The translations under genes and the position numbers were made by a program. Shown here piece after piece: positions 12,451-37,409 of a stretch of DNA of 64,000 nucleotides (within the stretch, counting starts at the first letter, position 1; each line of letters begins with the position of its first letter). The stretch lies in assembly GCA_963823555.1 (NCBI GenBank), contig CAWGMA010000003.1, positions 224,001 to 288,000 of the forward strand, in the 5' to 3' direction. Under the pieces are notes generated by a model, which was not told where the DNA came from, searched no databases, and was given only the letters and a program-made list of their open reading frames with translations. The DNA is from Candidatus Eiseniibacteriota bacterium (lineage in GTDB: Bacteria > Eisenbacteria > RBG-16-71-46 > CAVPCR01).

Positions 12451-12665
12451 CTCTGCCTGTTTTCCGGACACTGCGCGCTCGTCCCCGGAGGCCGGGAAAG
12501 CATCGCTGGCGTCCCGCTCAACCGGGATGTTCCGGCGAGGCTCTTTCATTCGCGGTCGCGAATCCCTCGACTGGCGATGTCCCGAACCGGTGCTCGAGGC
12601 GGGTCACGGCCCGCCCACCGGGTCGAATGCCTCCGACTCGGGCGCGCGCTTCCCAACTGAAAGCC

Positions 12666-13640
12666 ATGATTCAAGTCAAGAGTCTGAGCAAGCGGTTCGG
12701 GCCGACCATCGCCGTCGAGAACGTGAGCTTCGATGTTCAGCGCCGGGAAGTGGTCGGCTTCCTCGGGCCGAACGGCGCCGGCAAGACGACCACCATGCGC
12801 ATGCTCACGTGTTACTTGCCTCCCGACGCCGGGTCGGCCGAGGTGGCGGGCTTCGACGTCATGCGGCAACCCCTGGATGTGCGGCGAAGGATCGGATACC
12901 TGCCGGAGAGCGCCCCGCTCTACGCCGAGATGGGAGTCCTCGACTACCTCGAGTTCATCGCCGAGGTGCGGGGACTCGCCGGCCCGCGCCGGCGCCAGCG
13001 CATCCAGGACATGATCGGCATCTGCGGGCTGGAGCGCGTCGTCAAGAAGGACATCGGCGAGCTGTCGAAGGGATATCGCCAGCGTGTCGGCCTGGCCCAG
13101 ACCCTGATCCACGATCCCGATGTGCTGATCCTCGATGAGCCGACCTCGGGACTCGACCCGAAGCAGATCATCGAGATCCGCGAGCTCATCAAGGAGATCG
13201 GACGGGAGAAGACCGTCATCCTCTCCACGCACATCCTCCCCGAGGTCAACGCCACCTGCAACCGCGTGATCATCATCCACAACGGGCAGATCGTCGCTGA
13301 CGGCGCTCCCGACGAGCTCGGGGAGCGGGCTCGGGGTGGTGATCGCTTCTTCGTCACGCTGCGTGGTCCGGCGGAGGACATCTCGGCCCGCCTCGCCGAG
13401 GTGCCCGGCGTGCACGCCTTGCGTGCCGTCGGCCGGCCCGCTGGAGATCGCGTCCGCTTCGAAGTCAAGGCGGCGCACGAGGACGACGTGGCCGAACGCA
13501 TCTTCCAGGTCGCGGTCGACCATCGGTGGCCACTGAGCGAGCTTGCGCCGGAGGCATCGTCTCTCGAAGACGTCTTCATCCGGCTCACGCAGTCGGAACC
13601 GGGAACGGGGCCGGGTGCAGCTGGCACGGGCTCTGGATAG
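12666..13640 (+). CDS. ABC transporter ATP-binding protein (GldA-like)
   Basis: Walker A GPNGAGKTT, signature LSKGYRQ, Walker B LILDEPT, H-loop STH. Confidence 0.92.
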   Translation: MIQVKSLSKRFGPTIAVENVSFDVQRREVVGFLGPNGAGKTTTMRMLTCYLPPDAGSAEVAGFDVMRQPLDVRRRIGYLPESAPLYAEMGVLDYLEFIAEVRGLAGPRRRQRIQDMIGICGLERVVKKDIGELSKGYRQRVGLAQTLIHDPDVLILDEPTSGLDPKQIIEIRELIKEIGREKTVILSTHILPEVNATCNRVIIIHNGQIVADGAPDELGERARGGDRFFVTLRGPAEDISARLAEVPGVHALRAVGRPAGDRVRFEVKAAHEDDVAERIFQVAVDHRWPLSELAPEASSLEDVFIRLTQSEPGTGPGAAGTGSG

Positions 13641-13655
13641 CCGCGAAAGAACCAG

Positions 13656-14369
13656 ATGAAAACGATCCTTGCCATCTTCAAGCGCGAGTTCAAGAGCTAC
13701 TTCCGCTCGCCCATCGCTTACATCTTCATCAGCGCCTTCCTGATCGTGTCGGGGTGGTTCTTCTACCAGACCTTCTTCGTGATCGATTACGCGTCGATGC
13801 GGAACTACTTTGACATCTTGCCCTGGCTTTTCCTCTTCTTCGTGCCCGTGGTCACCATGCGCCTGTGGGCCGAGGAGCGGAAGATCGGCACGATGGAAGT
13901 GCTCATGACATTGCCGGTGCGCGACCATGAGGCCGTGCTCGGCAAGTACCTGGCGGGTCTTGCGTTTCTTGCCGTCGGCCTCGCGCTCACCCTTCCCATC
14001 CCGCTCACCGTGGCCCGGTTCGGCGATCCCGATGTGGGCGTCATCGTGGCCGGTTACGTCGGCGGCATGCTGATGGGAGCGGCCTATCTGGCGATCGGGA
14101 TCTTCGTCTCGAGCATGAGCTCGAACCAGATCGTGGCCGCCATCGTGGGCTGGGTGGTCTGTTTCATCCTCTTCTTCATCGGCAACGATCTGGTGCTCTT
14201 CAATGCCCCCAAGGCGGTGGTTCCGTTCTTCGACTATCTGGGGCTCGGCAACCACTTCGAGTCGATCGGGCGGGGCGTGCTGGATTCGCGTGATCTGATC
14301 TACTACGGGTCCGTGATCGCGTTCTTCCTCTTTCTGAATGTCCGCGTGATCGAGGCGCGGAAGGCATAG
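13656..14369 (+). CDS. ABC-2 type permease (GldF-like)
   Basis: 'REFKSYFRSPIAYIF', 'TMRLWAEERKIGTMEVLMTLP' and 'RGVLDSRDLIYY'; about 6 TM segments. Confidence 0.9.
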   Translation: MKTILAIFKREFKSYFRSPIAYIFISAFLIVSGWFFYQTFFVIDYASMRNYFDILPWLFLFFVPVVTMRLWAEERKIGTMEVLMTLPVRDHEAVLGKYLAGLAFLAVGLALTLPIPLTVARFGDPDVGVIVAGYVGGMLMGAAYLAIGIFVSSMSSNQIVAAIVGWVVCFILFFIGNDLVLFNAPKAVVPFFDYLGLGNHFESIGRGVLDSRDLIYYGSVIAFFLFLNVRVIEARKA

Positions 14370-14415
14370 CCGCGCCGGGCGCGGTGAATGGTGGAATGGC
14401 TATGAGGTCGATGTC

Positions 14416-16071
14416 ATGAGTTCGCGACGGATGCAAGCCGGACGCAACGCGGTCGTCGCGTCCATCCTGTTCCTTGCCATCCTGGTGCTCGTCAACTACC
14501 TGGCGGCCAGGAATTTCTCCCGGATCGACTTGACCCAGAACAAGGAGTTCACGATCTCACCAGCGACCCGTTCCATTCTCGGGCGCATGGACGACATCGT
14601 GAACCTCAAGGTCTACTTCTCGAAGGACCTGCCCTCATATCTCGCCACACTGAACAGCGAGGTTCGAGATCTGCTCGACGAGTTCGCCGCCTATTCGCAC
14701 GGCAATCTGGTCGTCGATTTCGAGGATCCATCGACCGACCCCGAGGTCGAGAACCGGGTGCGGCGGCTCGGCATCCCCCAGGTCCAGCTCGATGTCATCC
14801 AGAGCGACAGCCGCTCGATCCAGAACGCCTACCTCGGCATGGCCATGCTCTATGAGGACCGCAGCGAGACCATTCCGGTGGTCTATTCGACCGAGAACCT
14901 GGAGTACGATCTGGCCTCCTCGATCGTCAAGGTCCTGCAAGAGAAGAAGAAGGTGATCGGTTTCCTGACCGGGCACGGCGAGCCGGGTATCAACGACGCG
15001 TTCGACCCCGTGCGCCAGGAAGCCGAGAAGCAGTACACGGTGCGCGCGGTGGATCTCCAGGGCGGGCGGAGCCCGGTGCCGGCCGACGTCGACGTGCTGG
15101 TCATCGCCGGCGCGGACGCGATCAGCGAACGCGAGAAGTACCTGATCGACCAGTACTTCATGCGCGGCGGACGCCTGATCGTGCTCGAGGACGCCATCGC
15201 GCTCATGGGCGGAGCCCTGCAGGCCCGGCCCCTGCGCTCGGGACTCGAGAACCTGCTCCCGGCCTACGGCGTGCGGATCGACGAGGATCTGGTCCTCGAC
15301 AACGTGAGCGCGACAGCCGGCTTCACCTCCGGCTACATGCGGTTCATGGTCCGGTATCCGTACTGGCCGCGCATCGTGAAGCAGAACTTCGATCAGACCA
15401 ATCCGATCGTGAGCAAGCTCGAATCGCTGGTGCTGCCGTGGGTGAGCCCGGTCGAGGAAACCGAGATGAAGCCGGCCGCGGTCACCTTCACCAAGCTCGC
15501 CTGGACGTCGGATCAGTCCTGGACGCAGAGCGGCCCCTTCAACCTGGCGCCGCAACAGCAGTGGATGCCGGATCCCAACCGCATCAAGAGCCATGGAGTG
15601 GTGGCGGCGCTCAGCGGCCAGTTCCAGAGCTATTTCGCCGGCAAGGACATCCCGCCGGCTCCGGCCGATACGACGGCGGGGGTGGCGCCGGCGCCGCCCG
15701 ACGAGCCGCTGATCGATCTCAGCACCGAGACGCAGCTCCTGGTGGTGGGGACCTCGCAGTTCATCAACGCCAACTTCCTGAGCCAGTATCCGTCGAACAT
15801 CACCTTCTTCCTGAACGCGCTCGATTGGATGGCGCTCGGAGACGAGCTCATCGCCATCCGCTCCCGTACGGTGAGCGACCGCCCCCTCGATCCCGAAATC
15901 CTCAAGGATGAGGCCGCCGGCAAGCGGAGCGCGATCAAGTACGCCGGGATCTTCGGCATGCCGATCCTGCTCACGATCTTCGGCATCGGCCAGTGGATGG
16001 CGCGACGGCGCGGGAAGCAGACGTTCGAGTCCGCGCTGCGAGGCCCCTCGGGGGGGACGGGGAGCATCTAG
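14416..16071 (+). CDS. GldG-family ABC auxiliary component
   Basis: N-terminal TM, 'RIDLTQNKEFTISPAT', 'FLTGHGE', 'DQYFMRGG', 'NALDWMALGDELIAIRSR', C-terminal TM. Confidence 0.9.
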   Translation: MSSRRMQAGRNAVVASILFLAILVLVNYLAARNFSRIDLTQNKEFTISPATRSILGRMDDIVNLKVYFSKDLPSYLATLNSEVRDLLDEFAAYSHGNLVVDFEDPSTDPEVENRVRRLGIPQVQLDVIQSDSRSIQNAYLGMAMLYEDRSETIPVVYSTENLEYDLASSIVKVLQEKKKVIGFLTGHGEPGINDAFDPVRQEAEKQYTVRAVDLQGGRSPVPADVDVLVIAGADAISEREKYLIDQYFMRGGRLIVLEDAIALMGGALQARPLRSGLENLLPAYGVRIDEDLVLDNVSATAGFTSGYMRFMVRYPYWPRIVKQNFDQTNPIVSKLESLVLPWVSPVEETEMKPAAVTFTKLAWTSDQSWTQSGPFNLAPQQQWMPDPNRIKSHGVVAALSGQFQSYFAGKDIPPAPADTTAGVAPAPPDEPLIDLSTETQLLVVGTSQFINANFLSQYPSNITFFLNALDWMALGDELIAIRSRTVSDRPLDPEILKDEAAGKRSAIKYAGIFGMPILLTIFGIGQWMARRRGKQTFESALRGPSGGTGSI

Positions 16072-16138
16072 CGGATCGCGCCCGGGTCGGCGCCGGCGGG
16101 AGGTTTGCCGGCGGCCGGACAGGAGGAGTAGGCAGGAC

Positions 16139-17140
16139 ATGGAAGCTCGACAGATGCGCAACATGGCGCTCGTTCTCCTGGGTCTCTTGCTCGTCGCTCT
16201 GGTCCTGGAACAGCCGTGGTCGGGAGGAAAGAAGAAGACAGACGAGCTCTACCCCGATTTCAAAGCGGAAGAGATCGATCGTATCCACGTCGTGAATCGT
16301 GCCGATACCGTCGATCTCGTGCTCCGCGATGGATTGTGGCTGATCGGCGGCCCACGCCCGTTGCCCGCCGATACCGCCTCGATCAACCGGGCGCTGGAGG
16401 CGGTCGACCGATTCGAGAAGACGCAGCTCGTGTCCAAGAACGCCGAGAAGTTCACGGTCTTCGAGGTCGATTCAGCGAGCGCGGCTCATGTCCAGCTCTA
16501 TGCCGGCGGCGGTGATCCCGTCGTCGACATGCTCCTCGGCAAGTTCACCCCGGAGGGGGGCAACTACTTCCGTCCATCCGGCGAGGAGTTCGTCTATTCC
16601 TCCACCGATCGGGTCCGGGCCCTCTTCGCGCGCGATGCGCGCGCCTGGCAGGATCGGAAGATCTTCGATGTCGAGCCGGTTGACCTCACCAGGCTCATAG
16701 TCGAGCGCGGTGATTCGACCATCGTCTTCGAGAAGGAGGCCGATGGCAGCTGGCTCCTCAAGGAGCCGCTCAGTTTCCCGGTGCGCACCGAAGAGATGGA
16801 CAACCTTCTACGCAACGTGGCCAAGCTCATCGCCAATGCCTATCCCGATTCCGCGGTCACGGTGGCCGAGGCCGGGCTCGACAAGCCCAGGCTCCGGGTG
16901 CGGGCGGAGCGCCTCGACGGCACCGGGATCGAGCTCCTGGTCGGGGCGCAAGGCGGCAACGGGCTCTACTACGCCAAGGCCGCGGACCGCGACTGGATCT
17001 ACGAGCTGGCGCCCTACCGCATCGATCCCTTCTACAAGGATCTCCTGAGCATGAAGGCCGAGGCGCCGCCGGCGCCTCCGGCAGGAGAAGCTCCGTCAGG
17101 CGATGCTCCGGCCGGCGGAGCGCCGGGCACGAGCGGATAA
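16139..17140 (+). CDS. DUF4340 domain protein
   Basis: N-terminal TM anchor and two repeated domains ('W..PAD...I', 'GLDKPRLRV'); the usual fourth gene of GldAFG-like operons; AGGAGG upstream. Confidence 0.78.
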   Translation: MEARQMRNMALVLLGLLLVALVLEQPWSGGKKKTDELYPDFKAEEIDRIHVVNRADTVDLVLRDGLWLIGGPRPLPADTASINRALEAVDRFEKTQLVSKNAEKFTVFEVDSASAAHVQLYAGGGDPVVDMLLGKFTPEGGNYFRPSGEEFVYSSTDRVRALFARDARAWQDRKIFDVEPVDLTRLIVERGDSTIVFEKEADGSWLLKEPLSFPVRTEEMDNLLRNVAKLIANAYPDSAVTVAEAGLDKPRLRVRAERLDGTGIELLVGAQGGNGLYYAKAADRDWIYELAPYRIDPFYKDLLSMKAEAPPAPPAGEAPSGDAPAGGAPGTSG

Positions 17141-18497: not shown

Positions 18498-20573
18498 TCA
18501 GGGGGCGATGATCACGCGCTGCGAAGCCTGGCGCCCTCCCGCGTCCAGGCTCAAGAAGTAGACCCCGGGCGCGAGATCGCGATTCAGCGTGAAACGATGG
18601 CTGCCGGCCGCCTGCATGCCCTGATCGATGCGCGCCGCCACCCTCCCCGTGACGTCCACCAGGCGGACGACGACCTCGAGCGGTCGATCGAGCGAGTACT
18701 CGACGGCAAACGGCCCCGGGGCCGGGTTGGGCCGGACCGGGGCGAGCTGGAAGGCCAGGGCGGGGGAGGCCACCGGGCCGGGCGTGGCCGTGGTCGGCGG
18801 ATCCACCTCGACCGCGCCGCGGAGGATCCAGTAGTACGGGTCGAAGAGCACGGCAACCGGCTCCCCGCTCGCGGCGACTGCAAAGCTCTGCACGGCGAGA
18901 CTGTCGGTGATCACCGACCAGGTGGTGTCGCCGGCGGCACTGACGACGCCGATATCGATCGGCATCGTGAACGGCGGTGCATTGATCTGCACCTGCTCGA
19001 CATGCAGGCTCACCGCCCAGTCGCCGCCGCCCCGATCCACCGGCAGCCACCAGTAGGTGTAGAGCGGGCGGTTCACGCCGTAGATCCAGGGCATGAAGAA
19101 CCAGTCGAGATCGGCGCCATGGATCGACTCGGCGAGGGCCTGGAAGTCCGCGGTCACGGCGTTCCCGTATGCGTACTGGATCGCCCACTGGCGGAGCAGC
19201 TGTTCGAAGGCGGCATCTCCCATCACATGGCGGAGCATGTGCAGCACCCACCCGCCCTTCTTGTAGACGGTGCTGCTGAAGAGGTAGGTCGGATCGTAGA
19301 TCGGCCCCTGGAAGGAGCCGATGTCGAGCCCGCGCATGTAGAGGACATAGGCATCGAATCCCTGCACGGCCTCGACCCAGACCGCCTCGCTGTAGGTGGC
19401 GAAGCCCTCGTTGAGCCAGATATCCCGCCAGTCCCCGAGCGTGACGGAATCCCCCCACCACTGGTGGGACAGCTCGTGCGCCACGACCCAGTCATAGGAG
19501 TGGTCGCCGCGGGTGAGACCCGCCGAGTAGGTGGTGCAGGTCTGATGCTCCATGGCGCCGCCCCACTGGAACATCGCCATCCCGTACTTCTCCGCGAGGA
19601 ACGGGTACTCCCCGAAACGGTCGGCGTAGATCTCGATCATGGGCACGGTGACGCTCCAGTCCTCCTGTGCCTGTGTGAGCCGCTCCGGATACGAGTAGAA
19701 GATGACCGGCATCGTGTCCTGGCTCGCCGAAATGTACTGGTCCTCGAAGACGGTGAAGTTGGTCGCGGTGACGCTCACCAGGTAGGTCGAGATCGGATAG
19801 ATCTCCCGCCAGTGGTAGGTGATCTTGCCTGGGGCCGGCGCGGTGGTGCCGACGAGGAGGCCGTTCGAGGCGACGACCATGGTGTCGGGTACGGTGAAGT
19901 GCAAGTCCGCCGTGGCCTTGTCGTCCGGCACGTCCTTGCAGGGCCACCAGTTCCGCGCGTAGTTGGGCTCGGAGAGGGAGGCGGCGATCAGCGCGCCGTT
20001 GTGGGCTCCGAAGCCGAAGGCCAGGAATCCCCCTTGGGCCGGTTGCCCACCATAGGTGACCCGCACCGCGAACGGCTCGCCGGGGGCAAAGGGCCGGTCG
20101 AGGTTCACGGTGAGGAGGTTGTTGGCGTGAGTGTAGGGGAGCGGGATGCCGTCGCGGTCGACCGCGCTCACCACCATGGCGGGGTGCAGATCGAGGACGA
20201 GCGTCGTCAGGCTCGCCACGATGCTCTCGCTGGTCACCGTGAGGACGCCGCTGATCGATTCGCCGATGAAATCGATGTCGAGAGCGAGGTCATAGTGGAG
20301 GACATCGAAGTCGGTCTGACCCAGGGCCGGCTCGATGGACATCGGCTCGCGCTGCATCTCGAGGGCGTGCTTGGCATCGATCAGCGGGTGCGGTTCCTGG
20401 GGGAACAGCGCCGGATCAGCGAAGGGATGCAGCTCGAGCGGCGTGGCAAGAGCCGGTGGCGCGAGGAAGAGGGCCGTGGTCAGGGCGAGCGCCAGCGCGA
20501 GCGGGAGGACGGGCCACAAGAGTCGGATCCGGGAGGCGGATCCCGGACTGGGGCGCCGCGGAAGACCGATCAT
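18498..20573 (-). CDS. Secreted M1 family aminopeptidase with C-terminal T9SS-CTD-like domain
   Basis: GGAMEH, HELSH...WLNEGFATY and YKKG motifs; signal peptide; tail 'RPNP..DVTGR..LAPGVYFL'. Confidence 0.92.
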   Translation of the reverse strand: MIGLPRRPSPGSASRIRLLWPVLPLALALALTTALFLAPPALATPLELHPFADPALFPQEPHPLIDAKHALEMQREPMSIEPALGQTDFDVLHYDLALDIDFIGESISGVLTVTSESIVASLTTLVLDLHPAMVVSAVDRDGIPLPYTHANNLLTVNLDRPFAPGEPFAVRVTYGGQPAQGGFLAFGFGAHNGALIAASLSEPNYARNWWPCKDVPDDKATADLHFTVPDTMVVASNGLLVGTTAPAPGKITYHWREIYPISTYLVSVTATNFTVFEDQYISASQDTMPVIFYSYPERLTQAQEDWSVTVPMIEIYADRFGEYPFLAEKYGMAMFQWGGAMEHQTCTTYSAGLTRGDHSYDWVVAHELSHQWWGDSVTLGDWRDIWLNEGFATYSEAVWVEAVQGFDAYVLYMRGLDIGSFQGPIYDPTYLFSSTVYKKGGWVLHMLRHVMGDAAFEQLLRQWAIQYAYGNAVTADFQALAESIHGADLDWFFMPWIYGVNRPLYTYWWLPVDRGGGDWAVSLHVEQVQINAPPFTMPIDIGVVSAAGDTTWSVITDSLAVQSFAVAASGEPVAVLFDPYYWILRGAVEVDPPTTATPGPVASPALAFQLAPVRPNPAPGPFAVEYSLDRPLEVVVRLVDVTGRVAARIDQGMQAAGSHRFTLNRDLAPGVYFLSLDAGGRQASQRVIIAP

Positions 20574-20953: not shown

Positions 20954-22303
20954 ATGCTCGAGCGCATCAATCACCATCAACTCGGCGTCCACATCCTGAG
21001 CCTGTTCCTGGCCGTTTCCGTCTCGGCATGTGTCCCGGTCTACGAGCGGCGCCTGGAGCGCTACCGGGCCGGCGGCGACCTCGCTGCCGCCGAGCAACTC
21101 CTCGATTCGGCTCTGGAGGGGCATCCCGACAACCCGGACGTTCTGCGCGATAGCGGCATCGTCGCGTTCGAGCAGGGTGATCTGGATCAGGCGATCGATC
21201 GGCTGGCTCGTGCCCATGCGCTCGATCCCGATGACGGACGCACCGAGGTCTACCTGGCAGCCGCCTACGAGAGATCCTCCCGCTACGCTGAGGCCGCCGT
21301 CCACTATCGCCACCTGGAGCACCGCGTGGTCGCCGGAGACGGGATCAGCGATTACGAAGCCGATCTCATTTGCCGGCGCAGCCTCGTCGAGTCGCAGTAC
21401 GTGGCTGACCTCGTGGCGACGCGCCTGGCCGAGGAGAAGGCCGGAACCCTCCCTCCCGGCGACCGGCTGCTCATCCTGCCCTTCAGGCTGTATCAGGCGA
21501 CGCCCGGCGCCCAGAGTCTCAGGCTCGGGCTGGCCTCGGTGCTGAGCGCTGACTGGAGGGCCGCGCCGTCACCGGAAGCGGTGCCTTTCGCCGAGGTCGA
21601 GGCTTTCATGACCGCGCTCGAGGTGCCTCTCGATGCGGTGATCGGCAACGACCTGCGCGATCGGCTGGCCCGCCTCACGGGGGCTCGTTACGTTCTCGAC
21701 GGCACGCTGTCGGATGTGGGAGAGGTCATCTCGGCGGCTCCCGTGCTCATCGACCTGAATGCCCGCTCCGCCGCTGGCGAGGACAACGCCTCGCCACGGG
21801 AGGTGCATCTCGAGTACCAGCAGGCACGCACCGGATCTCTCGTCGAGTTCGAGCAGACGCTGCTCTTCCACGTGACCCAGGCCCTCGAGATCGAGTTCTC
21901 GCCGGTGGATGAGGCAGGGATGAGGCGCTTCTCCTCCCAGAGCGGATATGCCATCGCTCTCTATGGTGAGGGTATGGCCCTCGAGCGGGCAGGAGACCGG
22001 GCGGCGGCAATGGAAAAGCTGGCCCAGGCCACCGCCCTCGATCCAGACTTCGCCGCGGCGCGGGAAGCCCAGCTGCGGCTCACGTCTTGTCGCGGAAAGG
22101 CGGGGGAGCCGGAGTCGGTCCTTCAAGCCTACGAGGTCGCGCTCGCGGACGCCCGAGCCCGCTCATCCGAACGCGACCTCCTTGCCCGCACCACGAACGA
22201 GGTGGGGCGAGTGGGCGGGCCCGCCGGAGATGGCGACAACTTCTCCATCAATCGCGCGGCGGGAGCCGGCTCGGCCGTGTTCCCGGTGCGGTTGCCGCGA
22301 TGA
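20954..22303 (+). CDS. TPR-repeat lipoprotein with a CsgG/HfaB- or TolB-N-like alpha/beta domain
   Basis: Lipobox VSAC; TPR helices ('GDLDQAIDRLARAHALDPDD', 'ATALDPDFAAAR'); central 'LLILPF...LGLASVLSAD...RLARLTGARYVLDGTL'. Confidence 0.68.
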   Translation: MLERINHHQLGVHILSLFLAVSVSACVPVYERRLERYRAGGDLAAAEQLLDSALEGHPDNPDVLRDSGIVAFEQGDLDQAIDRLARAHALDPDDGRTEVYLAAAYERSSRYAEAAVHYRHLEHRVVAGDGISDYEADLICRRSLVESQYVADLVATRLAEEKAGTLPPGDRLLILPFRLYQATPGAQSLRLGLASVLSADWRAAPSPEAVPFAEVEAFMTALEVPLDAVIGNDLRDRLARLTGARYVLDGTLSDVGEVISAAPVLIDLNARSAAGEDNASPREVHLEYQQARTGSLVEFEQTLLFHVTQALEIEFSPVDEAGMRRFSSQSGYAIALYGEGMALERAGDRAAAMEKLAQATALDPDFAAAREAQLRLTSCRGKAGEPESVLQAYEVALADARARSSERDLLARTTNEVGRVGGPAGDGDNFSINRAAGAGSAVFPVRLPR

Positions 22304-23556
22304 TGGGCCCGATGCGCGCATCACTCGCCCGGAGGCGGCCACAGCCGGCAGCTGAGATGGAAAGGCCCGGCCCTGGCTCGACGACGTGGGCCGTCATCAT
22401 CTTCGGGCTTCAGCTCCTCGTCCTTGGGTCCACTGTGTCCTGGGCGGATTCCATCGTGCAGCGCGAGTTGCAGCCGTTCGATGTCGGTCCGACTCCGATC
22501 GGCGCCACCTCGATCGATGTCGGTCTCAACTACCGCACCTGGTCCATCCAGCAGGAGAGCGGCGACTCGAGCGTCGATCAGTTCGCCGTACCCGTCTTCG
22601 TGCGCACATCGCTCACGAAGAGCCTCGATTTCTCCTACCTGTTCAGCGCCGCCTCCTCCGGCCTCTCCCTCGGTGCCGGTGAGGAAGGAACGCTCGAGGG
22701 TGTGACCGACGGCAAGCTCGGCGTCAACTACCTCCTCCCCGGCAATCGCGTCTCCCTCGGGCTCGGCGTGCGTGTGCCCACCGGCGAGAGCGTCCTCGAT
22801 CCGCAGGAGGATGCGGTGGCCCGGGTCCTCAATGACCGCATCCTCGGATTCTGGGTGAAACGCTACGGGGAGGGCACCGATGTCGAGATGCGCGGCGGCT
22901 ACTCGGCCGTCCTGGGGCGCGGCGTCGCCCTCGCGGGTGGTGTCTCCTACACCCTGAAGGGCGACTTCCCCTTCCAGGACCCCCTGTCCGGAGTCGAGGC
23001 CAACTACGAGCCTGGAGATGAGCTATCGGTTCTGGTCCGACTCGAGGCGCGGGCCATCGCCCGGGACTGGCGGACTCAGGTTCGTTTCGCCACGTACGGA
23101 ACCGATCAGCGCGACGGCGTGGACGAGATCCAGGAAGGGAGCGAGGTCGAGCTCGGCTTGACCATGGCCGAGGAGCATCTGGCGGGGGTCCTCGAGCTCG
23201 ACGCGGGAGCGCTCTTCAAGCAAGACACCGAGATCGTGAGCGCCGAGGGCGCGTCTCCGGTCCGTGATGTCGGTGGCAATATCTTGCGAGTAGGAGGGGG
23301 ATTCTACGGCAAGCTGAGCGCGGCGAGCCGTCTGGGCGGACGGGTCGGAGCCAGCTGGTACGGCGAAGCGAAAAGCGGCACGGGCGATGGTTTCGTGTTC
23401 GAGGTCGGTCCGCGCTACCGGCGGCAGTTCGGATCCGCCATCACTGCCGATCTTGCCTACACCTTCTATGCGGGTAATGCCGAGGACAAGACCATCGATT
23501 TGATCGGTCACGACGTGACGATCGCGTTCGGACTCCTCGCCTGGGGCCGGCGATGA
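22300..23556 (+). CDS. Putative outer-membrane beta-barrel protein
   Basis: Signal-like hydrophobic stretch ending VSWA; alternating amphipathic strands rich in G/Y/F; 'LGLGVRVPTG' motif; terminal strand 'DVTIAFGLLAW'. Start codon overlaps the upstream stop (ATGA). Confidence 0.7.
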   Translation: MMGPMRASLARRRPQPAAEMERPGPGSTTWAVIIFGLQLLVLGSTVSWADSIVQRELQPFDVGPTPIGATSIDVGLNYRTWSIQQESGDSSVDQFAVPVFVRTSLTKSLDFSYLFSAASSGLSLGAGEEGTLEGVTDGKLGVNYLLPGNRVSLGLGVRVPTGESVLDPQEDAVARVLNDRILGFWVKRYGEGTDVEMRGGYSAVLGRGVALAGGVSYTLKGDFPFQDPLSGVEANYEPGDELSVLVRLEARAIARDWRTQVRFATYGTDQRDGVDEIQEGSEVELGLTMAEEHLAGVLELDAGALFKQDTEIVSAEGASPVRDVGGNILRVGGGFYGKLSAASRLGGRVGASWYGEAKSGTGDGFVFEVGPRYRRQFGSAITADLAYTFYAGNAEDKTIDLIGHDVTIAFGLLAWGRR

Positions 23557-24440
23557 GGGGGCCGCTGACCTCGCGGCGCGCCCTGCGCGCGGTCGCGCTC
23601 CTCGCCATCCTCATCATCGGCGCCGACTGCGCCCACGATCCGGCCGTGGCCCCCATCGTGGCCCCTGGCGCCGTGTCCTTCGCCGTCCATGTGGTCGAGG
23701 GTCCACTGGCGCCCGCCGCGGGAGCTCCAGGTGTCCGGGGGGCGGCTCCCTGCGAGCCCGTACCGACCGGATTTCCGACCGAGGTCGAAGTCGAGATCGA
23801 CCTCCGTTCCGAGGTCGGAGAGACGAGCACGCACACCTTCACGATCCCGGCGCGCACCGAGTCGAGTGACCTCGTCATCGGCGACCTGCCTCCGGGGAGT
23901 GGCTACTCGGCGCAGCTCACCGTGACGGCCCTCAAGGAGATCGTGTTCACGGGTCATGGCGGTCCGTTCGCCGTGCCCTCCGGGTCCAGACAGCGGATCG
24001 TCGTTCCGCTCTACCCCACCGGCCGCCGGGCGGTGCTCGCGATCGGCGCGCCGCAGATCGCGGCCAATGACGAGATCGTGATCCCCGTCATGGCGTCCCA
24101 CTCGGCGCCCGTGCGCGCGATCGAGCTCGATCTCTGCTTCGATTCGGCTCTCCTCGAGCCGCTCGGGGCTGCGGCGACGGGAACCAGGGTCGCCGCCTTC
24201 CGCGGCGCGGGCGGCCAGCCCGGGGTCCCCGGTCTCTACCGCGCCGTCTTGTGGTCGGAGGACGGCGCAGCCAGGATCGCCCCCGGCCAGGACGAGGTGC
24301 TCGAGATCCGATTCCGTTTCCGGCCGGAGGCGCCGGGCGACCTCGTGACCGATCTCATCTTCCAGGGCGCCATCTTCACCGATGCCGCGGCTGAGCCGCC
24401 CTTCACGGTCTACTTCTTCGACGGCCAGGTGCGGCGATGA
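23553..24440 (+). CDS. Exported (possibly lipo-) protein with an N-terminal Ig-like and C-terminal cohesin-like domain
   Basis: Signal peptide with Cys (atypical GADC). The C-terminal 'EIVIPV....PVRAIELDLCFDSALL...IAPGQDEVLEIRFR...LIFQGAIFTD' fits the cohesin pattern. ATGA overlaps at both ends. Confidence 0.68.
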   Translation: MRGPLTSRRALRAVALLAILIIGADCAHDPAVAPIVAPGAVSFAVHVVEGPLAPAAGAPGVRGAAPCEPVPTGFPTEVEVEIDLRSEVGETSTHTFTIPARTESSDLVIGDLPPGSGYSAQLTVTALKEIVFTGHGGPFAVPSGSRQRIVVPLYPTGRRAVLAIGAPQIAANDEIVIPVMASHSAPVRAIELDLCFDSALLEPLGAAATGTRVAAFRGAGGQPGVPGLYRAVLWSEDGAARIAPGQDEVLEIRFRFRPEAPGDLVTDLIFQGAIFTDAAAEPPFTVYFFDGQVRR

Positions 24441-27400
24441 GCGCGCGCCCCCACCGCATTCGTCCGGTGCTCGCGGTCTGGCTCGGCCTCCTCGCCGCGA
24501 CCTGTTGCCTGGCTGCCTCCGCATGGGCGCAGTCGCCGCCGGTCGCCGATCCCGGCGGACCGTACTCCGGCAACGAAGGCCAGCCGATCGCCTTCGATGG
24601 AACGGGCTCCTTCGATCCGGACGGTGGCCTCCTCGGCTACGTCTGGGACTTCGGAGACGGGACCACCGCCACCGGTGCCACGCCGAGTCACACCTACGCC
24701 GCCGGCGGTCCCTTCGTCGTGACGCTCACGGTCACCGACCCCGAGTTCCTGACCGACGTCGCCACGACGACGGCCACGGTGAACCGGACGCCGGCCGCGA
24801 ATCCGAACGGTCCCTATGCGGCCAACCTGGGCCAGCCGATCAGCTTCTCGTCGGCGGGGTCGAGCGATCCGGACGGCGATCAGCTCAGCTACCTCTGGGA
24901 CTTCGGTGACGGATCCACCGCCACGCAGCGCAATCCGAACCATACGTACTCGAGCGGAGGCATCTTCACGGTCACCCTCACCGTGACCGATCCCGGCGGG
25001 CTATCGGATGCAGGAACGACGACGGCGACGGTGAACCGCCCGCCGGTGGCGAATCCGAACGGTCCCTATACGGCCAACCTGGGCCAGCCGATCGCGTTCT
25101 CGTCGGCGGGCTCGAGCGATCCCGACGGCGACACGCTCACCTACCGGTGGGACTTCGGGGACGGCTCGACCTCGACTGCGGCCAACCCGACGAAGACGTA
25201 CGCGACGGGAGGCGTGTTTGTCGTTCTCCTCCAGGTCATGGATCCGGGAGGGCTCACGAACCAGGTCTCGACGACGGCGACGATCAACCGGCCGCCGGTG
25301 GCGGAGGCGAACGGTCCCTATACGGCCAGCCTGGGGCAGCCGATCAACTTCTCGTCGGCGGGCTCGAGCGATCCCGACGGCGATACGCTCGCCTATCTGT
25401 GGAGCTTCGGGGACGGGACGACGTCGACGCAGGCCAACCCGACGAAGACGTACGCGGTGGGTGGCGTGTACACGGTGACCTTGCGGGTGACCGATCCGGG
25501 CGGGCTCTTCGCCGAGGACACGGCCGAGGCCACGATCGCCCGCCCGCCGGTGGCGAACGCCAACGGTCCCTACACGGGGAACCAGGGGCAACCGATCGCA
25601 TTCTCGTCGGCGGGCTCGAGCGATCCGGATGGCCAGGCGCTGACCTACCTGTGGACGTTTGGTGACGGGACGACCTCGACTGCGGCCAATCCGACGAAGA
25701 CGTACGCGGTGGGCGGCGTGTACACGGTGACGTTGCGCGTGACCGATCCGGATCTCCTGTTCGATGAGGACACGACGACGGCGACGATCAACCGGCCGCC
25801 GGTGGCGGAGGCGAACGGTCCCTACACGGGGAACCAGGGCTCACCGATCGCATTCTCGTCGGCGGGCTCGAGCGATCCGGATGGCCAGGTGCTGACCTAT
25901 CTCTGGACGTTTGGCGACGGGACGACCTCGACGCAGGCCAATCCGGCGAAGACGTACGTGGTGGGTGGTGTGTACACGGTGACGCTCAGAGTGACGGATC
26001 CGGGCGGGCTCTTCAGCGAGGACACGGCCGAGGCGACGGTGAACCGGCCGCCGGTGGCGGAGGCGAACGGTCCCTACACGGGGAACCAGGGCTCACCGAT
26101 CGCATTCTCGTCGGCGGGCTCGAGCGATCCGGATGGCCAGGCGCTCACCTATCTCTGGACCTTCGGCGACGGGACGACCTCGACGGCGGCCAATCCGACG
26201 AAGACGTACGCCGTGGGTGGCGTGTACACGGTGACGCTCCGGGTGACGGATCCGGGCGGGCTCTTCAGCGAGGACACGGCCGAGGCGACGGTCAACCGGC
26301 CGCCGGTGGCGGAGGCGAACGGTCCCTACACGGGGAACCAGGGTCAGGCGATCGCGTTCTCGTCGGCGGGCTCGAGCGATCCGGAGGGCGGCGCGCTCAC
26401 CTATCTCTGGAACTTCGGAGACGGCTCGACCTCGACTGCGGCCAATCCGAGTCACACCTATGCGACCGGCGGCGTCTTCGCCGCAACGCTCCGGGTGACG
26501 GATCCGGGGGGGCTCTTCAGCGAGGACGCGGCTGCGGTCCGCGTGAACCGGCCGCCGGTGGCGGAGGCGAACGGTCCCTATACGGCCAGCCTGGGGCAGC
26601 CGATCAACTTCTCGTCGGCGGGCTCGAGCGATCCCGACGGCGACGCGCTCGCCTATCTGTGGACCTTCGGGGACGGGACGACCTCGACGCGGCCAATCCG
26701 ACGAAGACGTACGCGGTGGGTGGCGTGTACACGGTGACCTTGCGCGTGACCGATCCGGGCGGGCTCTTCGCCCAGGATACGACGACCGCCACGATCGCCC
26801 GGCCGCCGGTGGCGAACGCCAACGGTCCCTACGCGGGGAACCAGGGCCAGCCGATCGCGTTCTCGTCGGCGGGCTCGAGCGATCCGGATGGCCAGGCGCT
26901 GACCTACCTGTGGACGTTTGGCGACGGGACGACCTCGACGGCGGCCAATCCGACGAAGACGTACGCGGTGGGTGGCGTGTACACGGTGACGCTCCGGGTG
27001 ACCGACCCGGATCTCCTGTTCGATGAGGACACGACGACGGCCACGATCAACCGGCCGCCGGTGGCGGAGGCCAATGGGCCCTACACGGGGAACGCGGGTC
27101 AGCCGATTGCATTCTCGTCGGCGGGCTCGAGCGATCCGGAGGGCGGTGCGCTCACGTATCTCTGGACCTTCGGCGACGGGACGACCTCGACGGCAGCCAA
27201 TCCGGCGAAGACATACGCGGTGGGTGGTGTGTACGCGGTGACGCTCAGAGTGACGGATCCGGGCGGGCTCTTCAACGAGGACACGGCCGAGGCGACGGTG
27301 AACCGGCCGCCGGTGGCGAACGCCAACGGTCCGTACGCGGGGAACCAGGGCTCACCGATCGCGTTCTCGTCGGCGGGTTCGAGCGATCCGGATGGCCAGG

Positions 27401-30400
27401 CGCTGACCTACCTTTGGACGTTCGGCGACGGGACGACGTCGACGCAGGCCAATCCGGCGAAGACATACGCGGTGGGTGGCGTGTACGCGGTGACGCTCCG
27501 GGTGACGGATCCGGGCGGGCTCTTCAACGAGGACACGGCGCAGGCGACGGTCAATCGCCCGCCGGTGGCCGAGGCCGGCCCGCCCTCGGCGCCGATCTAC
27601 AACGGAGACCGCGGCGTCCCGATCGCGTTCTCGTCGGCGGGTTCGAGCGACCCTGACGGAGATGCGCTGACATATCTCTGGGAGTTCGGCGACGGGACGA
27701 CCTCGACCCAGGCCAATCCGTCGAAGACCTACGCCCAGGGCGGCGCCTACACCGCGACCCTGCGCGTTCGCGACCCCGGGGGCCTGATCGGGACAGACAC
27801 CGCCCCCGTGCTCGTGAACGACCTCGTCGTCACGGCGCCGGCGGCCGGAGTGGTGTGGTCGGAAGGCTCGACGCAGTCGATCCAGTGGACCGCGATCGGG
27901 TCGATCGGCCAGGTGGCCGTCGAGTACCGCCTGCGGCCCACCTCGACGTGGACGCTCATCGGCACCGCGCCGGCGGATGCCGGCTCTCTCCAGTGGCAGG
28001 TGCCGGACATCGGCAGTGCAGACGAGACCGGCGTCCTCGTCCGCGTCCGCCGCGCCGCGGATCCGCAGCTCGAGGACCGGAGCGATCCCTTCACGATCCG
28101 GAACCGCGTGCTCACGGTCACCGCGCCGGCGAGCGGGGACTCCTTCTACGAGACGACGGTCACCGACATCAGGTGGACGAGTGTCGGATTCGTATCGCAG
28201 GTGCGGCTCGAGGTCCGCCTGTCGCCGACGGGCGCCTGGCAGCAGATCGCCGCCACCGAGCCCAACGACGGCCGCTATACCTGGACCGTGCCCGAAGTAG
28301 CGGCGACCCAGAACCGCGCCCAGGTGCGCATCCTGGATGCCGCCGACACCCTGTCCACGCGGGACACGAGCGACGAGTTCACGATCCGCAACCGTTCACT
28401 CGCGATCTCGTCGCCGTCGGCCGGAGTCGTGTGGTCCGAGGCCTCCAGCCAGACGATCGAGTGGACGGTGAACGGGCCGGTGGGGGATGTCGCCATCGAA
28501 TTCCGCCGGAACCCGCTCGAGATCTACCAGGAGATCGCGCGGCGGCCCGCGACCGATGGGAGCTATGTCTGGCTCGTGGCGGCGGTGACGCAGGATCAAC
28601 CCCAGGCGCAGGTCCGGATCCGGGAGCTCGACCCGCGAAGCGATCCGATCAACAGCGAATCCCAGCTCTTCATCATCCAGAACCGCGCTCTCTCGATCGT
28701 CGATCCGGCACCGGGCAGCGAGATCTCGGAACGCATCCAGACGCCGATCACGTGGTCGAGCGCCGGACTCATCGACAACGTGCGGATCGAGTTCCGGCGC
28801 CGGCCCGCTGATGCCTGGGAGGCCGTTGCCGCCTCCGTGCCCAACTCCGGTTCCTACCAGTGGAACACGCCGGAGGTGGCGGCCGACGAGCCGGAAGCGC
28901 AGATCCGCATCACGGATGTCGCGGTCGGCCCGGATCTCGCTCAGGCTCTGAGCCAACCCTTCACCCTGGTCAATCGCACGCTCACGCCGGTCCTGCCCGC
29001 GCCCGGGAGCATCGAGTGCGAGGCGGACACGGTTGCGATCGTGTGGGAGACGCGGGGTTCGGTTCCGACCGTGGACATCGAGTGGCGCATCGACCCCGAT
29101 TCGGCCTGGAATCCGGTGGTCACGGCCGTTCCCAACACGGGGTCCGCCCTCTTCCCGACTCCCGATGTCCCGGCCACGAGCGATCAGGTTCAGCTGCGCG
29201 TGCGACAGGCCACGGACCAGACCGTGACGGCTACCTGGTCACCGTTCACGCTCACCAATCGCGCCATCGCCTTCCTGCGCCCGGTAGGTGGCGAAACCTA
29301 CACCGAGGGCGATGCCGTGCCCGTGAGCTGGCTCTCCGACTGCATCGATTCGGTGCTGGTGGAAGCTCGCATTCGCCCCGGCGCGGCGTGGGTGCCGCAG
29401 GGGCCTGGAGTATGGCCCAACACCGAGCAGATCATCTGGACCGTGCTCCGCGTCGACCAGGAGGAGAACGCAGTTCAGCTCCGGATCTCGGACGCCTCGG
29501 ATCCAGGCGCGGTGCTCTCGGTGTCGAACCCGTTCACCGTGCTCAACCGCGTGCTCGACGTGGTGCGTCCGACGGTGACCGACAGCCTCTCGGAAACGAC
29601 CACCTTCCGGATCGAATGGGACTGGGCGGGGACCCTGCAGCGGGTCTCGATCGACTACCGACTCGATCCAGCGCTCGACTGGGTGCCGATCACGAGCAAC
29701 GTGGCGAACACGGGCAGCTACAACTGGCAGGTGCCGCTCGTGGATCGCGACTATCGCGCAGCCCAGATCCGCGTCACCGACACCAACAACCCGGGCGTCT
29801 TCGACGAGGGTGATCCCTTCATCATCATGAACCGCGCTCTTTTGATCACGCGCCCGGCGGTGCTCGACACGCTCACCGAGACGGCGGCCGATACCATCCG
29901 CTGGTCGACGCGGGGGGAGGTGCCGGTGGTGACGGTGAGCTATCGCGAGAGCCCGAGCGATACCTGGCAGGTGATCGCCTCGGAGCAGCCCAACACCGGC
30001 TTCCTGCCGTGGGTGGTGCCCGCGGTCAACGGGGACGCGACCGCGGCCCGGGTGCGTCTCGACTACCCGGCGGCCCCGGAGGTGACGGTGGAGAGCGGTC
30101 CTTTCGTCATCCTCGACCGCGCCTTCCTCGTGCTCTCCCCGGCCGGCGGCGAGAGCTGGTCCGAGGCCACGACACAGCTCCTCCGCTGGCGCACCGTGGG
30201 TGAGATCGATTCGGTGCGGATCGAGCTCGTGCTGCCGGGAGGCGGCAGTCAAGTGCTCTTCCCCTCGACGCCCAATGACGGCGAGGAGCCCTGGCTCGTC
30301 CCCGAGCTCTCGCTCACGCTCCCCGGCGTGCGCATCCGCGTCATCGATCCGCGGCCGCCGTCGACCGGGGCCACGTCGCAGCCATTCACGCTCGTGAACC

Positions 30401-31602
30401 GTTCGCTCACCATCACCGCTCCGGCGCCGGGCGCGCGCGTCGAGTGGCGTATCGGCTCCACGCAGGCGATTCGGTGGGCGACCGCGGGTGTCGTCGATTC
30501 GGTGTCGATCGAGCTCGGGCGTGATGGTCCGGTGGGATCCTTCGAGACCGTGGTGGCATCGACGCCCAATGACGGCGAGTTCCTCTGGCTCGTGACCGCA
30601 CCCGAGACCTTCAATGCCGTGCTGCGCATGCGCGGGGTGGGGGTCCCGGATGTGGTCGCCATCACCCCCAGCGTCTTCGCGATCTACGACCTGGTGCCAC
30701 CCGATCTGTGCGCCGACTTCGACCATTCCGGGAGCGTCACGCTCGACGAGCTGGTGCGTGTCGAGAGCATCATCATCGGGGATGCGGTGGCCAGCGAGGC
30801 CGATTCACTGGCCGCGGATGGAACCCGTGATGCGCTCATCGACGTTCGCGACATTCTCTGCGGCGTCGATGACATGATCGCGGGGGAGATCGCCGGGCGC
30901 GGGCGGCCCTTCGTGGATGCCGGGTTCGAGGAGAGCGCGGCCCATGGCGCGCTCATTGCCCTCGGCCCGCCACCGGCGGCCGGGATCGTGCCGATCGAGA
31001 TCACGACCGCGGACCCGCTGGCCGGCCTCCTGGTGGCGGTGGAGGTCGAGGGGGGGAGCGCCGACCCCGAGCTGGGCCCCGACGGGGAGGGGCTGGTCAT
31101 GGTCTGGACCGCGACTGGACCCGGACGCCTGACGGCGACCGTGCGCCGCACACCCGGCGGCCCCGTGCTGGCCGCGGGAACGAGCTGGCCTCTCCAGCTG
31201 CGAGTGCGCGCCGCAGCGACCGGCGATGTGATGGTGCGCGTCACGCGCGCGGAGGCAGTGGGGGTCGATGCGAACCCGAAGCCGGTGCATCTCCTGGCCG
31301 GCGAGGCGGCGGTCCTCCCGCTCCAGGTGGCGCTCGGACAGAACCGGCCGAACCCGTTCAATCCATCGACCGTGATCCCCTTCGAGCTGCCGGCGGCAGC
31401 GCGGGTCGAGCTCCGGGTGCATGACGTGGGCGGACGGCTGATCAAGCGCGTGATCGACGGCGCCACGTTCCCGGCGGGCTACCACAGCGCGCGCTGGGAT
31501 GGGCGGGACGAGCGCGGACTCACCGTGGCGAGCGGAGTGTATCTGGCCACGCTCCGCGCGGGAGGGGAGACCTTCACCCGCAAGATGATGGTGATCCGCT
31601 AG
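24437..31602 (+). CDS. Giant surface protein (~2390 aa): 13 PKD + 10 Ig-like repeats + dockerin + cohesin-like + FlgD-Ig CTD; one 1-nt frameshift near 26690
   Basis: ORFs 24437-26737 and 26659-31602 join inside PKD unit 9: 'acctcgacgcggccaat' lacks one base relative to sister repeats. Signal peptide ends AWA. WDFGDG/WTFGDG PKD motifs, double EF-hand dockerin pattern, and CTD 'QNRPNPFNPSTVI..WDGRDERG..SGVY..RKMMVIR'. Confidence 0.88.
24530..27820 (+). repeat. 13 tandem PKD-domain repeats, 252-bp unit, near-identical DNA
   Basis: Unit starts at 25286, 25790 and 26546 differ by multiples of 252 bp. Confidence 0.92.
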
Positions 31603-36218: not shown

Positions 36219-36473
36219 CGCCGGGGCACCATGGCGAGCTGGGAAGTGCAAGCCACGAGAGCCGATGGCCCTGTCGGAAGGGGCGCTGGCCAGCCAGGCA
36301 TCGAACTTGCTTCTACTCCCTGGGGCCCACCGCAAAGCCGGGAGATCGCGCCCTGGGCCGGACAGGAAGCGACCGGATCGGTCCATTCTCGACCGGGCGG
36401 TTCAACCCAGGATGGGCTCATGGGGGCTTCGGGGGTGGAGGGAGCCCCTGATCCAGTAGAGGAGATTCGTACG

Positions 36474-37409
36474 ATGAGCGCTTGCACGTTTTCGCGCCGC
36501 TCGGCGCGCCTCTGGCCACTCGGCATCGCCTTGAGTCTCGCCGTGGCGGTCATCCTCACCGGCTGCGACGACAGCGGGGTCCTCGACACCGTCAACGAGG
36601 ACGAGCTGGCACCGCCGCTCGGGCTCACGAGCATCACCGGCAACGGGGAAGTCTCGCTCATCTGGTTCACGAGCAACTTCGAGAGCGGGTTCGAAGGTTA
36701 CATCGTCTTCATGCGTGAAGGGGATTACGAGACGGACCGCTCGGCGCAGCTGCCGACGGGGTTCGTCGAGGTCGACCGCATGCCGTTCGGCGCGTCCGGT
36801 GTGCAGCGGAGCACGCTGATCGGGGGCCTCGAGAACGGCCGCACGTACAGCTTCAGCGTGTGCGCTTTCCGTGATGGTGGCGGCGAGATCAGCCTCGCGA
36901 GCAACATCATCGCCGATACCCCGCGCCCGGACATCTCGGGCATCGTGCTCGCATCCGCCTCCACGAACGACGTCATTGGCGACGACTCGCGAGCCGGGTT
37001 CGATTTCGAGGGTTTCCAGGTCGAGGCGGTTCCGCTCGATCTCGCATCGGCGAACTACACGAACAACAGCGGCACCGACATCGTGCACGAGGCCTTCGAT
37101 CCAGGCGTCAACAACACCAACATCCGCTCGTGGCTCGCCGGCATGAACGGCGGCGGCGTGCAGGATCTGGGCTGGATGGCGGACCTGGACGGCTCGAGCG
37201 TGGCTCCGATTGACGGCTATGCCTCGACCGGCGAGTCGGTGCTCCTGACGGTCGGCCACGTGTACGCGGTCCGGACCGGCAACAACCACTATGCGAAGCT
37301 CATCGTGACGAGCATCCAGGGGGCTCCGTCCTTCCTCGTCACGTTCAACGCGGCCTACCAGACGAAGCTCGACGAGCCCAATTACTTCCCCGCGCTCGGT
37401 ATCCATTAG
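36474..37409 (+). CDS. Lipoprotein with a fibronectin type III domain
   Basis: Lipobox LTGC; FN3 'GNGEVSLIW...GYIVF...GLENGRTYSFSVCAF'; AGGAG RBS. Confidence 0.78.
   Translation: MSACTFSRRSARLWPLGIALSLAVAVILTGCDDSGVLDTVNEDELAPPLGLTSITGNGEVSLIWFTSNFESGFEGYIVFMREGDYETDRSAQLPTGFVEVDRMPFGASGVQRSTLIGGLENGRTYSFSVCAFRDGGGEISLASNIIADTPRPDISGIVLASASTNDVIGDDSRAGFDFEGFQVEAVPLDLASANYTNNSGTDIVHEAFDPGVNNTNIRSWLAGMNGGGVQDLGWMADLDGSSVAPIDGYASTGESVLLTVGHVYAVRTGNNHYAKLIVTSIQGAPSFLVTFNAAYQTKLDEPNYFPALGIH

Follow-up and report, generated by a model that had tools for sequence, protein, structure and literature searches.

The 64,000-nucleotide stretch analysed here (the window, G000:C3:224001-288000) comes from a Candidatus Eiseniibacteriota genome of 4.6 Mb in four contigs (G000, 92.5% complete), and contains a four-gene cassette at positions 20954..31602 in which gene 3 encodes a lipoprotein with a cohesin domain and gene 4 a giant secreted protein with a dockerin-like repeat. 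Genome comparisons support, at the level of sequence, a conserved pairing in which a non-cellulosomal cohesin lipoprotein adjoins a giant dockerin-like protein built of immunoglobulin-like (Ig) or PKD repeats. We propose with moderate confidence that the products of genes 1 to 3 form a barrel-linked anchor, the surface cohesin of which would capture the rod encoded by gene 4 after its likely export by a type IX secretion system (T9SS). The features of the cassette are as follows.

20954..22303, + strand: gene 1, tetratricopeptide repeat (TPR) lipoprotein with a CsgG/FlgO/LpoB-like core; Cys at 21029; 449 aa
22300..23556, + strand: gene 2, predicted outer-membrane beta-barrel of an unnamed family (1526 clusters at 50% identity)
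23553..24440, + strand: gene 3, two-domain lipoprotein; Cys at 23628 with acidic residues next; 295 aa
23658..24020, + strand: N-domain of gene 3, pilotin/transthyretin-like fold by structure comparison
24021..24437, + strand: cohesin domain of gene 3, type I-like fold (Z 15.2)
24437..31602, + strand: gene 4, secreted giant protein of ~2390 aa when read across a one-base break
24533..27813, + strand: 13 PKD repeats of gene 4, the ninth frameshifted
27814..30687, + strand: 10 Kre9/KNH-like Ig repeats of gene 4
30703..30879, + strand: divergent dockerin-like duplicated calcium-loop/helix repeat of gene 4
30934..31338, + strand: cohesin-fold domain within gene 4 (Z 13.8)
31348..31599, + strand: FlgD-like / T9SS type A C-terminal sorting domain of gene 4

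Conservation of the cassette and of the cohesin lipoprotein

The ATGA stop/start overlaps that an earlier sequence-only reading of this DNA described between the four genes are present at 22300-3, 23553-6 and 24437-40; gene 2 has further in-frame ATG codons downstream, and the start in use may differ from that at the overlap. Comparisons were made with a close set of five genomes of the G000 order, with G001 a relative in the same genus, and with a phylum census of 206 Eisenbacteria genomes. Conservation of the gene order, on which the sequence-only reading had staked its proposal, is borne out in all five genomes of the order, with the contigs of G002 and G004 stopping inside gene 4 and the dockerin tail lying on a separate contig. 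Among metagenome loci the barrel gene precedes gene 3 in five of five and gene 4 is reached in four of the five. We found no description of the four-gene cassette in a literature search that largely left out subscription journals, and the cassette is real and conserved and, as far as found, undescribed.

The structural model of the gene 3 product (pLDDT 82) has two domains. The C-terminal one is a nine-stranded beta-sandwich that superimposes on cohesins (Z 15.2, rmsd 2.6 A over 134 residues), and the top Foldseek matches are cohesins; the Pfam Cohesin score is 16.1 bits (cut-off 24.1), with two orthologues at 17-18 bits. The cohesin-like C-terminus proposed earlier is thus confirmed by the fold, together with a lipoprotein-type Cys. 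The N-domain matches the fold of ExsB (Z 10.8) and of DUF4876 and type V pilin N-domains (Z 8.5-10.2), and nothing significant was found for it in a sequence search of solved structures. The same domain occurs in lipoproteins encoded 3' of the barrel gene elsewhere in the phylum (hhalign 95.5%, score 53.6), where 30 column shuffles scored at most 14.4 and reversed and other beta-sandwich sequences were run as further controls. A profile of the N-domain finds 43 of the 206 genomes, 40 of which also have the barrel; among genomes outside the building of the profile this co-occurrence is 21/24 versus 10/163, counts that are inflated by kinship since relatives are not independent.

Split and fused stalks

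A sample of 60 of the 91 barrel places in the phylum, strong matches being preferred, shows what follows the barrel gene, with the lipoprotein groups assigned by hand. A cohesin lipoprotein occupies this position in four loci, a lipoprotein with a gene 3-type N-domain and no cohesin in 18, and a lipoprotein of another type (group B) in nine, of which the four long ones that were scanned have Kre9 arrays; the remainder are kinases (seven), a T6SS-sheath-like gene (two; T6SS, type VI secretion system), and other or unassigned genes (20). The N-domain lipoproteins without cohesin that were scanned mostly continue into FN3 and HYDIN/ASH arrays, which often span 1000-1500 aa, such that stalk and lipoprotein are fused in one chain. 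A dockerin match is found in just two of the 60 loci, both of them cohesin loci, and in none with a fused lipoprotein.

A lipoprotein combining N-domain and cohesin is present in eight genomes, and wherever the following gene is complete (G000, G001, G003 and three genomes of family f18) its product is a large Ig protein that contains a dockerin and has a tag-like C-terminus. In family f18 this arrangement is seen in three of three genomes, and none of the 17 remaining loci of that set has a dockerin match. The f18 cargos carry TIG/PKD-type domains and were missed when the gene 4 tail was used as query; that tail has matches in six of 121 genomes, nearly all within the order. This split-versus-fused pattern is the main argument for cohesin-dockerin binding in trans.

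A second locus of G000 has a similar organization, in that an S8 protease gene (L067, G000:C3:175109-178593), the product of which carries a dockerin, a beta-sandwich and a T9SS tag, is overlapped by the next gene, encoding a 201-aa lipoprotein with a single cohesin; the pair is conserved in G001 and the lipoprotein is also present in G002. A PKD protein encoded at G000:C1:1022497-1026177 (L068) has cohesin-like, dockerin, beta-sandwich and tag segments in one chain, with orthologues across the order. A sample of 121 Eisenbacteria genomes gave Dockerin_1 matches in 76, usually one or two per genome.

We considered and rejected a cellulosome, as gene 3 has a single cohesin and gene 4 no catalytic domain. 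A Pfam scan of gene 4 bears out the earlier statement that no catalytic carbohydrate-active enzyme domain is evident, and none of the three dockerin proteins found in G000 is a glycoside hydrolase.

Gene 4 and its probable export by the T9SS

Gene 4 is interrupted by the loss of one base near 26689, in the ninth PKD repeat, which divides it into open reading frames of 766 and 1647 aa. The giant protein of about 2390 aa put forward in the sequence-only reading therefore holds in length when read across the break, but not as a single reading frame. Contigs at 85% span the region only in short pieces. The frameshift is likely an assembly error, because the gene is intact in G001 (2721 aa) and G003 (2167 aa), and because three of 25 orthologous genes in G000, gene 4 among them, occupy more than one frame.

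The dockerin-like repeat is the least secure of the gene 4 domain assignments. Its two Asp-rich loops are kept in five orthologues, and hhalign relates the repeat to other dockerin-like repeats at 90.9% and, for the dockerins of family f18 (one of three of which is above the Pfam cut-off), at 96.9%. The dockerin proposed earlier for gene 4 stands in part: the duplicated loop repeat and the profile matches are present, but a Pfam Dockerin_1 match is not, EF-hand being the only family found.

The C-terminal tag scores 24.1 bits with TIGR04183 (cut-off 23), the C-terminal domain matches the fold of the PorU C-terminal domain (Z 9.3), and the N-terminus is hydrophobic and ends by eye in A-W-A. Gene 4 thus has the two hallmarks of T9SS type A cargo, a signal peptide and a C-terminal sorting domain. 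The host genome encodes SprA (451 bits, NCBIfam cut-off 200), PorU (475, cut-off 420) and a PorV family member (191, cut-off 90), and has at least 150 FlgD-type tags (150 of 257 candidates scored), such that gene 4 would be one of many likely T9SS cargos. A search for GldN, the one component of the PorK/L/M/N type sought, gave no match, and its positive controls likewise went unmatched. Export of gene 4 by the T9SS is likely on these sequence features. Among other secreted proteins we note small cohesin-like ones (L069, G000:C1:377525-378346; L019:4163-4729; L052:2005-2631) that lack the FlgD tag and share a TWG-x-(I/V)-K-like end, possibly a second sorting signal.

A predicted barrel family and its TPR partner

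Gene 2 matches no Pfam or NCBIfam family, and a sequence search of solved structures gave nothing significant. Its conserved hydrophobic residues alternate in a strand-like manner, and matches to OMP_b-brl or Phenol_MetA_deg are found in six of 44 homologues, one of them above cut-off; on this basis we predict an outer-membrane beta-barrel. A protein atlas returned unnamed clusters only for both the barrel and the gene 3 N-domain (N-domain scores below 0.9). The barrel family includes a Zixibacteria protein among its 1526 clusters, and its neighbours in the atlas are mostly from Gemmatimonadota. A last protein search gave six hits, and those that had a name were from Eisenbacteria. Within the Eisenbacteria census the barrel is found in 50 of the 206 genomes, and gene 1 immediately precedes it at all 57 of the 60 loci examined that have sufficient upstream DNA (at least 1.5 kb).

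The gene 1 product consists of TPRs, the CsgG/FlgO/LpoB-like core (~21446-21913), another TPR and a flexible tail closing with a conserved beta-strand-like motif; the motif, defined after the alignment had been inspected, is present in 19 of 20 gene 1 proteins. Six of 16 homologues contain a peptidoglycan-binding insert, which points to a periplasmic location. Pfam CsgG has no match in gene 1 itself or in any of its four in-order orthologues, and solved structures searched by sequence include no significant match to the core.

These data bear on an alternative in which gene 1 would form a CsgG/HfaB-like oligomeric pore that, together with the barrel, exports gene 4. Pfam CsgG matches are seen in 11 of the 16 homologues scanned, seven of them above cut-off, as this would predict, but all of them end by position 102 of the 210-position profile, and a direct profile match of gene 1 with CsgG reaches only 4-6%. 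The first hairpin stretch, which in CsgG is a membrane hairpin, has 31 residues in Escherichia coli CsgG and 7-13 in 22 of the 23 gene 1 cores (of 28) in which it was measurable by pattern matching, with nine residues in 18 of them. Gene 4 moreover bears a T9SS tag, and the genome that carries it encodes SprA, PorV and PorU. We therefore reject gene 1 as a CsgG secretion channel and regard the pore as very improbable. Of the CsgG/HfaB-like TPR lipoprotein in the sequence-only reading the TPRs and the lipoprotein remain, but the CsgG-type channel, and with it export through a dedicated pore, does not.

Genes 1 and 2 are also not confined to this cassette, and throughout the phylum they accompany other lipoproteins as well as kinases and T6SS genes. 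The earlier view of an apparatus dedicated to one adhesin, that of gene 4, is accordingly abandoned; the conserved unit is wider, and comprises gene 1 and the barrel together with a lipoprotein that has the pilotin/transthyretin-fold N-domain.

Several loci with other payloads are of interest in their own right. Giant lipoproteins of 1300-1700 aa are encoded 3' of the barrel at L093, L094, L099, L103, L106 and L110; the four scanned have Kre9/KNH Ig arrays like those of the gene 4 stalk, and their second domain is weakly cohesin-like. At L081 (7121-14983) a protein of 2620 aa that has CARDB repeats and a tag-like C-terminus lies directly 3' of the barrel with no lipoprotein between.

A proposed mechanism and its alternatives

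A plausible scenario for the cassette is that gene 1 would serve as a scaffold on the periplasmic side, with the gene 3 N-domain docking on the barrel or on the terminal strand of gene 1, such that the trio keeps the gene 3 cohesin exposed at the cell surface. The T9SS would export gene 4, the dockerin-like repeat of which would then bind the gene 3 cohesin in trans, and the PKD/Ig rod may act as an adhesive or contact-sensing stalk. The cohesin-dockerin pair would in this way substitute for the direct fusion of stalk and lipoprotein seen in relatives. Surface exposure of gene 3 is suggested by the size and type of the payloads in relatives and by the acidic residues that follow the Cys. Net negative charge after the lipidated Cys is found in 17 of 20 N-domain lipoproteins versus four of 20 gene 1 proteins, and the acidic stretch loosely resembles the export signal described in Bacteroidetes (PMC5080379).

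Several observations weigh against such a tether. The K/QA of the published export motif is absent from the N-domain lipoproteins, making the likeness a loose one. ExsB, to which the N-domain is closest in fold, is a pilotin and faces the periplasm. The group B lipoproteins that follow the barrel at nine loci do not match the gene 3 N-domain (0.5%), nor do they have a convincing cohesin match (14-16%), and a barrel gene is present within 3 kb for only 18 of the 55 held-out N-domain hits, many of the assemblies being fragmented. The dockerin-like repeat has no Pfam Dockerin_1 match in five of five gene 4 orthologues, appears unfolded in the AlphaFold monomer (pLDDT ~30), and matches a dockerin structure at an E of 0.43. 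Gene 4 may also be genuinely broken in the G000 strain. Directly after the dockerin, gene 4 has a cohesin fold of its own, a competing partner with which the dockerin may pair in cis or in another gene 4 copy, and a PorU sortase might suffice to anchor gene 4 in the absence of gene 3. By profile, a cohesin is present in the two other dockerin proteins of G000 as well (both in the seed), with weak profile links to canonical cohesins.

The last of these points lead to an alternative in which the gene 4 dockerin binds the gene 4 cohesin, in cis or head-to-tail from one copy to the next, and PorU, which the genome encodes, anchors the protein; the gene 3 cohesin would then serve other dockerins or merely act as a chaperone. 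The immediate succession of dockerin and cohesin fold and the recurrence of a dockerin-beta-sandwich-tag tail in three G000 proteins are as this predicts. However, the f18 cargos have a dockerin and no detectable cis cohesin (0.2%) and their cassettes still keep the cohesin lipoprotein, and conservation among the five orthologues is lower for the cis cohesin (0.37) than for the dockerin (0.52) or the gene 3 cohesin (0.43). We consider this arrangement unlikely, and favor capture of gene 4 by the gene 3 cohesin in trans.

A more complex picture is seen with the neighbourhoods of the barrel at the 60 loci, where a kinase is found in ten and a second TPR/CsgG-like protein in 31. T6SS-like clusters lie beside the gene 1-barrel pair in 16 (L023, L024, L025, L028, L031, L032, L033 and nine more), the T6SS labels of the seed proteins having been assigned by recognition of their sequences; the second TPR/CsgG-like gene and the peptidoglycan-binding insert are common at these loci. 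Such associations are consistent with a trans-envelope contact sensor, in which the barrel and the N-domain lipoprotein would link an Ig stalk outside the cell with gene 1, the tail of gene 1 passing through or plugging the barrel, and the signal going on to the second TPR/CsgG-like protein and to a Ser/Thr kinase that in many cases controls a T6SS. The near-universal terminal strand of gene 1 also fits, as do a kinase adjoining two of the three f18 cohesin cassettes and the service of the ExsB/TssJ fold family in secretion machines (PMC3213119). Against this, no T6SS was found in G000 (92.5% complete as noted), and the four other cassettes of the order have neither a kinase nor a second TPR/CsgG-like gene, so that the output gene would have to lie elsewhere or have been lost in this order. 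The sensor is a tentative proposal, compatible with the tether, to which it would add a signalling purpose.

In a speculative extension, to which we give a similarly low weight, the trio would be an undescribed display-and-sensing machine in which the terminal strand of gene 1 threads the barrel and locks the lipoprotein outside, the stalks being interchangeable, either as fused Ig arrays or as T9SS cargos attached through cohesin and dockerin. It is possible, if rather doubtful, that this applies across Eisenbacteria, Zixibacteria and Gemmatimonadota, with stalks coupled to the cell wall and often to a kinase and a T6SS.

Neighbouring genes

Among the genes upstream of the cassette are a GldA/GldF/GldG-like ABC transporter and a DUF4340 gene (window positions 12627-17140), all below the Gld cut-offs; in G003, GldG-like and DUF4340-like genes lie immediately 5' of gene 1. 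An M1 aminopeptidase with a T9SS tag (18498-20573, - strand) is divergent from gene 1, and its position is kept in G001. Downstream, the gene at 36231-37409 is predicted to encode a lipoprotein in which an FN3 domain is combined with a C-terminal domain of no known kind.

Relationship to known systems and significance

The closest parallel is with OlpA and OlpC of Clostridium thermocellum (PDB 3ul4 and 4dh2; Z 14.1-14.2), in which one type I-like cohesin is likewise carried by an envelope-bound protein near dockerin clients. OlpA and OlpC are SLH-anchored wall proteins, whereas gene 3 encodes a lipoprotein of a diderm, has an N-domain of pilotin fold and adjoins the gene for a predicted outer-membrane barrel. 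Unlike the OlpA/OlpC clients, gene 4 is a PKD/Ig rod that lacks a catalytic domain, bears a T9SS tag and includes a cohesin of its own. Cohesin and dockerin modules are also described for Candidatus Stygibacter, of the diderm candidate phylum Cloacimonadota, together with a C-terminal domain proposed for surface attachment; there, a multi-cohesin scaffoldin is associated with enzymes, and the available part of the report does not mention a cohesin lipoprotein, barrel or TPR partner (PMC8542988). Dockerins of rumen Bacteroidetes are also among the nearest known systems (PMC6487960).

Individual components have other relatives. The gene 3 N-domain shares the pilotin/transthyretin fold with ExsB, TssJ and type V pilin N-domains, but the cassette has no secretin. 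The cores of gene 1 homologues are weakly homologous to the N-terminal half of the CsgG profile, to FlgO and to LpoB, from which (and from HfaB) gene 1 differs in its missing first pore hairpin, its flanking TPRs and its fixed, separate barrel partner; no curli genes are in the cassette. The Slam translocon is similar in layout, with a TPR protein and a barrel beside a lipoprotein, and the TPR_Slam matches are below cut-off. Slam combines TPR domain and barrel in one chain, whereas here they are separate genes with a CsgG-like core on the TPR protein, and the Slam barrel profile has no match in gene 2 or 44 homologues. Gene 4 ends, like cargo of the SprA/Sov, PorV and PorU pathway, in a type A-like sorting domain, although its tag is FlgD-like, and we know of no T9SS anchoring route in which cargo is captured by a cohesin lipoprotein. 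What appears to be new, judging from sequences and models, is thus the proposed cohesin-dockerin surface anchoring on a wider, unnamed TPR-barrel-lipoprotein module; cohesin-dockerin anchoring itself is already known.

Little is known of what cohesin-dockerin pairs do outside cellulosomes, and here a clear genetic context together with the split-versus-fused pattern predicts a job for one of them, in which both binding modules are small. If this is true, the pair would join two export routes, that of T9SS cargo and that of surface lipoproteins. The nameless barrel family, with its 1526 clusters, its fixed TPR partner and its pilotin-fold lipoprotein, is a candidate for a new kind of machine, serving surface display or contact sensing, in several phyla that have received little study.

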